Below, one piece after another: positions 470 through 2,341 of a stretch of DNA of 5,260 bases. The stretch is from a virus. Its lineage: Duplodnaviria; Heunggongvirae; Uroviricota; Caudoviricetes. The stretch lies in the IMG/VR virus record IMGVR_UViG_2667527608_000018, one strand, 5' to 3'. A program made the position numbers and the translations under genes. Numbering within the stretch: position 1 is the first letter of the stretch; each line of letters starts with the position of its first letter. The notes beneath the pieces are model-generated. The model worked only from the letters and a program-made list of their open reading frames with translations. It was not told the DNA's origin and did not search any database.

Positions 470-2341
470 ATGAGTAAAGTCTTTATTTGCGCCGCCATTC
501 CGGACGAACAGGCAATAAAGGAAGAAGGTGCAGTCGCTGTAGCCACTGCCATTGAAGCCGGTGATGAATGTCGCGCCCGCGCAAAATTTCACTGGCAATT
601 CCTGGAACATTATCCGGCTGCTCAGGACTGCGCTTATAAATTTATTGTCTGCGAGGATAAACCTGGCATACCCCGCCCTGCCCTCGATTCATGGGATGCT
701 GAATATATGCAGGAAAACCGCTGGGATGAGGAGTCTGCTTCTTTTGTCCCGGTTGAGACTGAATCCTATCCGATGAACGTCACTTTTGACAAGCTGGCCC
801 CTGAAGTACAGAACGCTGTCATGGTTAAGTTCGACACATGTGAAAACATCACCGTTGATATGGTGATTAGCGCACAGGAATTGTTGCAGGAAGACATGGC
901 AACATTCGACGGACATATCGTTGAAGCGTTGATGAAAATGCCAGAAGTTAACACCATGTATCCGGAGCTTAAGTTGCACGCCATTGGGTGGGTTAAGCAT
1001 AAATGTATTCCTGGTGCTAAATGGCCCGAAATTCAGGCAGAGATGCGCATCTGGAAAAAACGTCGCGAAGGTGAACGCAAGGAAACCGGAAAATACACGT
1101 CTGTTGTTGATCTCGCCCGCGCCAGAGCCAATCAACAGTACACTGAAAATTCAACAGGAAAAATCAGCCCGGTCATTGCTGCCATTCATCGCGAATACAA
1201 GCAGACATGGAAAACACTGGATGACGAACTGGCCTACGCTCTCTGGCCTGGTGATGTGGATGCCGGAAACATTGACGGCAGCATCCATCGCTGGGCAAAA
1301 AATGAAGTTATCGACAACGGCCGCGAAGACTGGAAGCGTATCTCGGCATCAATGCGCAAACAGCCTGATGCCCTTCGCTACGACCGCCAGACTATTTTTG
1401 GCCTTGTCCGTGAACGTCCGATCGACATTCACAAAGATCCCGTAGCACTGAACAAATATATCTGCGAATACCTGACGACAAAGGGCGTGTTTGAGAATGA
1501 AGAAACAGACCTGGGCACTGTTGATGTTCTCCAGTCATCAGAAACACAAACTGATGCAGTGGAAACTGAGGTATCTGATATCCCAAAAAATGAAACCGCG
1601 CCGGAAGCTGAACCATCTGTAGAGCGTGAGGGGCCGTTCTACTTCCTCTTCACCGACAAGGATGGCGAAAAATACGGTCGCGCAAACAAACTTTCTGGTC
1701 TGGATAAGGCGCTGTCTGCTGGGGCTACTGAAATCACGAAAGAAGAATATTTCGCCCGCAAAAACGGTACATACTCAGGTTCACAACAAAATACTGGTGC
1801 ATCTGACACGACCGCACAACCAGGGTCAGTAAAAGTTACCGCTGACGAAGTAAACAAAATTATGCAGGCAGCCAATATCAGCCAGCCTGACGCCGATGAA
1901 CTGCTTGCAGTATCACGTGGTGAATTTGTTGAAGGGATTAGCGACCCGAATGATCCGAAATGGGTTAAGGGGATCCAGACCCGCGATTCTGTGAACCAGA
2001 ACCAGCAAGAAACGGAACAGAACGACCAGAAAGCGGAACAAAACAGCCCAAATACGCAACAAAACGAGCCAGAAACGAAACAACCTGAACCAGTAGTGCA
2101 ACAGGAACCGGAAAAGATCTGCACCGCCTGCGGTCAGAGCGGTGGCGGCAACTGCCCTGATTGTGGAGCGGTAATGGGTGACGCAACCTACCAAGAGACA
2201 TTCAACGAAGAAAGCCAGGATGAAGCCCGGAAAAAAATCCGGAGGAAATGGAAAATGCCGTGCTCCCGAATAAGCAATGCACCGAAGGCGATCAACATGC
2301 CAATGGCAATAATGAAACAGGCGAGACAGCAAATCCCTTAA
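470..2341 (+). CDS. Large hypothetical prophage early-region protein (623 aa) with acidic Q/N/E-rich low-complexity linker and C-terminal CxxC-x7-CxxC zinc-ribbon-like motif; function unknown
   Basis: Uninterrupted 1872-nt ORF; GAGG (457-460) 9 nt upstream of ATG 470; Cys codons at 2120, 2129, 2153 and 2162. It sits upstream of exonuclease-xis-int, the slot occupied by Ea22-like accessory genes in lambda-family phages (recalled synteny, not sequence similarity). Confidence 0.8.
   Translation: [623 protein letters not shown]

Follow-up and report, generated by a model that had tools for sequence, protein, structure and literature searches.

The window gene compared with RecE, YdfE and DexA

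RecE, the exonuclease VIII of the Rac prophage, is a large protein of the early left operon that carries its nuclease at the C terminus, and its N terminus is dispensable for nuclease activity and enhances linear-linear recombination. The ydfE gene lies in the Qin cryptic prophage of Escherichia coli K-12, where it was cut by IS2E after approximately 256 codons. In addition, T4 DexA and its stand-alone E. coli homologue EcD have been described as 3'-5' DNA exonucleases, and EcD reportedly protects against T4 (PMC12153337). We analysed a stretch of 5,260 nucleotides (nt) of viral DNA (IMG/VR record IMGVR_UViG_2667527608_000018; hereafter the window), in which an open reading frame (ORF) of 623 codons runs from an ATG to a stop codon at positions 470-2341 of the plus strand. 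The results indicate with high confidence that codons 1-589 of this ORF are the beginning of a ydfE/recE-family gene from a lambdoid prophage, that the remaining 34 are read out of frame, and that the intact gene comprises 823 codons. Such genes form a known family that is extremely common, and the copy in the window is a pseudogene.

The decisive comparison was with the profile PHROG 2082, an 'exonuclease' profile of 823 positions. Residues 1-591 of the ORF matched profile positions 1-591, and positions 594-823 were matched by residues 1-230 of the next ORF (2248-2940), which overlaps the first by 94 nt and lies in a different frame. Because PHROG 2082 spans both ORFs end to end, they represent one gene, located at 470..2940 on the plus strand and frameshifted, with 823 codons once a single A is restored; the insertion of one A into the window sequence did indeed yield an 823-amino-acid (aa) translation. 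An intact orthologue of the same length (WP_000048403.1, 823 aa; record L001) is found among the same neighbours, in the order dicB-ydfD-exo-xis-int-tRNA-Ser-mtfA. The reading frame is lost at a homopolymer of seven A's (A7; 2231..2237, plus strand), at which intact alleles carry eight (A8) according to the DNA alignment and the translation of record L004, and the window copy cannot be read through into the nuclease domain as a single ORF. Very probably, a single A was lost from the A8 run in this copy. The in-frame N-terminal part (470..2236, plus strand; aa 1-589) corresponds to the YdfE_N and YdfE_C module, as judged from its identity to YdfE and its alignment to RecE. From codon 590 onward, the ORF continues as an out-of-frame tail of 34 codons plus stop (2237..2341, plus strand). 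The remainder of the gene (2236..2940, plus strand), which consists of a linker and a DEDDh (Rv2179c/DexA-like) 3'-5' exonuclease domain of family PF16473, is read in the -1 frame, and the domain shows in the window as the separate 230-codon ORF at 2248-2940.

The alleles at this site illustrated how the intact gene is read. In the window, the junction is CCCGG-AAAAAAA-TCCGGAGG, with the seven A's at 2231-2237. In relatives that share the linker allele of the window, the run is A8 and translation stays in frame as ...ARKKNPEEMENAV... (also given as ...QDEARKKNPEEMENAVLPNKQ...), as taken from the alignment and the L004 translation. This linker allele was present at an identity of at least 99% in 17 complete E. 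coli genomes. Sixteen of these records are one base longer than the window sequence, which fits A8, and are annotated 'exonuclease'; A8 was seen directly in L004 and L005 only, and in the other 14 it was inferred from the length of the match. The remaining record (strain 377323_2f) has A7, and the Prokaryotic Genome Annotation Pipeline (PGAP) labels the gene 'frameshifted'. An independent and different frameshift is present in the same gene of O145:H28. Most other alleles have no homopolymer at the site and carry GAAAATGAT or GAAGATGAT instead. It was also observed that an inverted repeat, CCGGA...TCCGG, flanks the A run at 2227-2242 and forms a hairpin of 5 bp whose loop contains the run; the repeat is not kept in other alleles, and its stability is no better than that of shuffled sequence.

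The initial annotation had placed the ORF, as an unassigned accessory gene, just upstream of exonuclease, xis and int. The downstream gene order is present as described; the ORF itself is the N-terminal part of that exonuclease gene. The 623-codon ORF at 470-2341 was reported correctly, and the 'basic tail' noted at its end (aa 590-623) turned out to be the out-of-frame read beyond the A7 run. Evidence that the ORF is a decayed pseudogene fusion had been named there as an outcome that would overturn the accessory-gene view, and this is in essence what we found, with PGAP calling the same A7 lesion 'frameshifted' elsewhere. The result is chiefly an annotation correction, in which two ORFs become one frameshifted pseudogene.

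It had further been stated that no family or function could be assigned; the ORF belongs to a known and very common family, represented by K-12 ydfE, the Pfam pair YdfE_N and YdfE_C, PHROG 2082 and the middle region of RecE. BLASTP revealed that aa 1-256 are identical to E. coli K-12 YdfE (b1577) at 250 of 256 residues (98%), and the K-12 gene occupies the same operon position, in the order dicB, ydfD, ydfE and then int. Both copies are pseudogenes; whereas the K-12 gene is interrupted by IS2E, the 1-nt deletion in the window lies far more 3' and leaves nearly the whole N-terminal module readable. The Pfam families PF27430 (YdfE_N) and PF27432 (YdfE_C) were assigned by proxy, from precomputed hits on proteins 97-98% identical to the ORF. 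A Pfam scan of the ORF with a model set that excludes YdfE_N and YdfE_C returned only a sub-threshold DZR match.

In an alignment with K-12 RecE, residues 262-626 of the repaired protein correspond to RecE residues 278-592 (E 2e-57, 37% identity over approximately 370 columns), and two elements, the box SRGEFV(E/D)... and the motif C(T/N)ACGQ(S/T)GG(G/D)..., are both nearly identical. The NCBIfam RecE model (NF007259) matched residues 246-626 only (model positions 271-603, 4e-78), and the score of 263.4 bits lies far below the equivalog cutoff of 1269. The window protein and RecE also differ at both ends. The RecE N terminus (PF06630) is unrelated to the first approximately 260 aa of the window protein, and the RecE nuclease is a 5'-3' enzyme of the PD-(D/E)XK type, whereas that of the window gene is a 3'-5' DEDDh domain. 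No match to a PD-(D/E)XK (PF12684-like) domain was found in the window gene, whose C terminus is PF16473, and recT is not beside it, an excisionase-like gene following directly at 2999. Another RecE, that of Rac-SA53 (1048 aa), gave a weak BLASTP match (5e-4) and lacks the four-cysteine motif described below; for these reasons, K-12 RecE is the informative comparison.

Of 5426 complete E. coli genomes, 3535 (about two-thirds) contain at least 80% of the gene, and it is also present in lambdoid phages (HannyBb, mEp460-like phages, Tritos), where it is annotated 'exonuclease' or 'exonuclease VIII'. Lambdoid phages have been described as carrying genes for DnaQ-type nucleases close to int as well as 'RecE-2' proteins that lack a nuclease, the role of both being stated as unknown (Zheng et al., Genome Res 2025, PMC12315714); that paper mentions the 'RecE-2' proteins and the int-proximal DnaQ-type nucleases only in passing. 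The 'RecE-2' proteins show the same distant relationship to RecE as the window gene, a likeness drawn from their description.

The N-terminal module and its nuclease domains

The module was modelled with AlphaFold2 on a 45-sequence alignment, with a mean predicted local distance difference test score (pLDDT) of 77. Starting from the N terminus, the protein has two domains predicted with confidence to be folded, then an acidic linker without ordered structure, a small domain and a conserved box; these are followed by a Q/N/E-rich linker, a four-cysteine motif, a further linker and the nuclease. Domain 1 (470..1099, plus strand; aa 1-210) is predicted to be alpha/beta and then helical, and domain 2 (1187..1504, plus strand; aa 240-345; pLDDT 92-97) to be helical, aligning with RecE 278-353. 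A small beta-hairpin/helix domain follows at 1622..1774 (plus strand; aa 385-435; pLDDT 94-96), and aa 457-500 were moderately confident in the model. The conserved box (1913..1987, plus strand; aa 482-506) is nearly identical in K-12 RecE. Disordered linkers were predicted at aa 220-236, 346-382, 439-456, 503-545 and 570-591. The Q/N/E-rich linker that had been noted at about aa 500-550 is present as aa 503-548 (1976..2113, plus strand), is also rich in P, contains Q, N or E at 26 of its 46 residues and has a pLDDT below 50 over 503-545.

The CxxC-x7-CxxC motif reported in the initial annotation is likewise present, at aa 551-565 (2120..2164, plus strand). Its cysteines are kept in 97 of 97 close relatives and in K-12 RecE, and the motif is therefore not a chance occurrence. 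The arrangement of the cysteines suggests a zinc-ribbon-like element; the Pfam DZR profile scored 13.5 bits on the motif against a threshold of 27.3, and its model contains only isolated strand residues at a pLDDT of 51-73, so that the likeness would hold for the arrangement and not for profile or geometry. Structure prediction, which had been recommended for the two ends of the ORF, was thus confident for the N-terminal domains and left the cysteine motif weakly defined. The motif is limited to the close E. coli group and RecE and is missing from every distant representative. The view that the ORF shows no recognisable catalytic motif was correct for the approximately 590 N-terminal residues.

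A search among solved and viral structures revealed no fold relatives of the N-terminal domains, and aa 1-345 had only 166 relatives among 1.84 billion representative proteins. This search resolved two units, aa 1 to approximately 220 and approximately 225-340, the second of which occurs at varying positions in many architectures and is shared with RecE. Among 44 relatives, 12 have a PD-(D/E)XK domain, 9 a DEDDh domain and 1 a RecT domain, and about half have no Pfam nuclease domain. The distant relatives belong to PHROGs 2489, 7838 and 26058. In eight distant homologues of the N-terminal module with 670-790 aa (P0126, P0133, P0154, P0158, P0170, P0183, P0212 and P0224), there is neither a Pfam nuclease domain nor the cysteine motif, and a different conserved C-terminal region assigned to these three PHROGs is present. 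Separately, the DNA at 1922-2017 (aa 485-516) overlaps the conserved box and shows 92-98% identity to recE-type genes that have otherwise diverged (H56-H57), one of which (H57) is in an Actinobacillus phage record; this identity could stem from homology where modules join or from strong constraint on the peptide.

A large protein search, which gave 7940 clusters, revealed what is attached to the module in close relatives. According to precomputed architectures, the close clusters combine PF27430, PF27432 and PF16473 in 812-830 aa, while an N terminus of 93% identity is found in an architecture of PF27430, PF27432 and PF12684 with 900 aa and recT directly after it. The DEDDh and PF12684 architectures part right after ...ETGE(T/V)A(N/D)P(L/V)I. 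The variant in record L009 shows a recent exchange of the nuclease domain. The intact protein is modular, with a nuclease domain that is exchangeable on a common N-terminal module. In L009, the 900-aa protein with the RecE PD-(D/E)XK domain is encoded at 383-3887, with kilR before it and recT and lar after it, a Rac-like setting. It had been asked whether homologues stand consistently beside a DEDDh exonuclease; nearly all of the closest full-length ones have the nuclease fused in frame, and it is either DEDDh or, alternatively, PD-(D/E)XK.

The nuclease domain of the window gene matched PF16473 (Rv2179c-like, DEDDh) over its full length, at residues 49-220 of the 230-aa ORF, with an E-value of 9.3e-64 and 214.8 bits against a gathering score of 27. 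It thereby resembles T4 DexA, EcD and Rv2179c of M. tuberculosis, which are stand-alone enzymes of approximately 170-230 aa, whereas in the window gene the domain forms the C terminus of an 823-aa protein. A sequence search of the PDB gave nothing but DexA, and only for the C-terminal domain: a weak match to the DexA chain in entry 8kel that spans both Exo I and Exo II. The entry 8kel belongs to the study of T4 DexA (PMC12153337). EcD itself was considered as the identity of this domain and rejected, as its primer-derived termini, MIDTET... and ...TIPETYD, differ.

The catalytic set of the domain is incomplete in the window. D53, D153, H203 and D208 (numbering of the 230-aa ORF) are present; the Exo I motif at 2404..2412 (plus strand), which aligns to D7-F-E9 of DexA, reads D-L-K instead of D-L-E, with Lys55 encoded by AAA at 2410-2412. 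The glutamate is found in 98 of 100 relatives, and lysine only in the window and in the allele of the rspB prophage (L004). The Exo I glutamate is a metal ligand in DnaQ-like DEDDh enzymes, and the nuclease would therefore probably be inactive even if it were read in frame. The exonuclease of the window copy has most likely been inactivated in two ways, by the frameshift and by the lysine in place of the Exo I glutamate.

With regard to how the intact protein might work, the YdfE/RecE N-terminal module may serve as a non-catalytic carrier that positions or regulates the attached exonuclease at DNA ends, a role that would parallel that of the RecE N terminus. By analogy with T4 DexA, the DEDDh domain of intact copies would trim 3' DNA ends, and at most a nuclease-less protein of 623 aa would be made from the window locus. 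The module of approximately 590 residues is common to YdfE-type proteins and RecE, and its fusion partner is a 5'-3' PD-(D/E)XK nuclease in some proteins and a 3'-5' DEDDh nuclease in others, while further proteins carry the module with no recognisable nuclease domain. Wider interest in it is not new: knowledge of what it binds would account for the need for full-length RecE in efficient linear-linear recombineering and also show what purpose the int-proximal DnaQ-type nucleases of lambdoid phages serve.

The mosaic tract and rival readings of the A7 run

Outside positions 2150-2460, the window differs at 3 bases from the serU-site prophage end of the Shiga toxin-producing E. coli (STEC) strain 2011C-4251 (L001), in which the exonuclease gene is the intact one. 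The tract at 2167..2557 (plus strand) is base-for-base identical to the paralogous exonuclease gene of the rspB prophage (L004), a second prophage in the same kind of strain, and it brings both the A run and the Exo I E-to-K change. The mosaic arose either by gene conversion, with both prophages resident in one cell, or as a chimera of the assembly.

Several points weigh against our reading of the locus as a decayed gene whose product carried a tethered nuclease. First, the window by itself does not distinguish a genuine A7 mutation from a sequencing error in the homopolymer. Second, the assembly may have joined two paralogous prophage copies into a chimera at 2167-2557. Third, none of the exact 623-aa, 230-aa and repaired 823-aa products is present in a collection of 15 billion proteins, and the exact window allele is therefore rare. 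Fourth, the E-to-K allele is in frame in 16 genomes and may for this reason keep a non-catalytic role. Finally, a role as carrier or scaffold is inferred for a module with neither a fold relative nor a known binding partner.

The alternative that survives best is that the gene is intact in the organism, that A7 is an error in homopolymer length or the mosaic an assembly chimera, and that the real product has 823 aa. Homopolymer miscounts are a common sequencing artefact, and the absence of the split and repaired products from the large protein collection agrees with such an error. In addition, related genomes carry both this gene and the paralogue to which the tract is identical, a setting in which assemblies collapse repeats. 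However, the same A7 is found in an independently assembled complete genome, and other lineages carry different frameshifts in this gene, so real decay is common. We consider this alternative rather unlikely, and even if A7 is a sequencing error, the locus contains one gene and not two.

The view of the initial annotation, that the 623-aa ORF is an independent accessory gene with an undescribed phage-host function of its own, runs counter to the frameshift that cuts the ORF off from its own exonuclease gene, and we regard it as very improbable. The N-terminal module is without known function or fold relatives, and distant relatives without a nuclease domain, including 'RecE-2' (PMC12315714), suggest that it can act alone. 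However, nearly all of the closest full-length matches have the module fused in frame to a nuclease, and the few exceptions are partial, fragment entries. Furthermore, the last 34 codons are out of frame and unconserved, and the same lesion is handled as a pseudogene by PGAP.

An equally slim chance attaches to the idea that the A7/A8 tract is a reversible, slippage-prone switch, or that truncation is tolerated and the N-terminal YdfE/RecE module works alone. The natural relatives that lack a nuclease, together with the presence of A7 at two prophage loci, are compatible with it; if it were true, cells would toggle between a nuclease-tethered and a nuclease-free scaffold that binds DNA ends. 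A low rate of -1 slippage on AAA-AAA may occur and would restore the intact sequence, but the locus shows no sign of selection for slippage.

Least probable of all is that the run acts as a programmed switch (ribosomal -1 frameshifting, slippage in transcription or phase variation) that yields both a 623-aa nuclease-less protein and the full-length exonuclease: the AAA-AAA lysine codons are slippery, a -1 slip after K589 would restore RKKNPEEM exactly, A7 occurs in two prophage contexts, serU (window) and rspB (L003), and nuclease-less relatives exist in nature, but 16 of the 17 records of this allele are one base longer, which fits an in-frame A8 (direct for L004 and L005), most alleles lack any homopolymer at the site, the 5' flank of the heptamer is G and not A, a tract of 8 A's is short for a contingency locus, and downstream RNA structure is no better than chance. 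Specifically, the region 3' of the A run gave a minimum free energy of -16.8 kcal/mol, where shuffled sequences averaged -16.5 (z = -0.11), with no sign of a stimulatory structure, and we did not find among homologues a conserved slippery run that requires both frames, as the intact allele is an in-frame A8 and the others have no A run. With an unconserved run and no RNA structure, programmed frameshifting was rejected.

Neighbouring genes and the serU prophage end

The decayed exonuclease gene is preceded in the same early-left operon, of the dicBF type, by dicB (1..189, plus strand; Pfam DicB, 1.7e-37) and by a ydfD-like gene of 63 aa (DUF1482; 186..377, plus strand; PF07358, 7.8e-25), whose start was taken from the L001 annotation. 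The most likely start of the latter is 186, in an ATGA overlap with the dicB stop codon, and the ORF as called by program from 132 extends too far upstream. In Qin, YdfD has been reported as a lysis protein and an inhibitor of IspG (PMC8835842). An Rfam scan of the window returned a tRNA only, and a PADLOC search gave no defence-system match beyond one with an E-value of 0.025 on 23 residues.

Downstream of the exonuclease gene, the excisionase-like gene (DUF4224; 2999..3202, plus strand) was recognised from profile matches and is followed by a tyrosine integrase gene (3202..4227, plus strand). The integrase is a 341-codon ORF, the identical sequence of which PGAP flags as frameshifted in L001 and L008; the PGAP range ends 25 nt past the stop codon (window 3202-4252). 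Near the 3' end of the integrase, two frames encode 'ENIP', a hint that a small duplication lies downstream of the catalytic Tyr region. The tRNA-Ser gene (CGA; 4280..4369, minus strand; Rfam) marks the prophage boundary, and mtfA begins beyond it at 4463. Taken as a whole, the serU prophage end looks cryptic.

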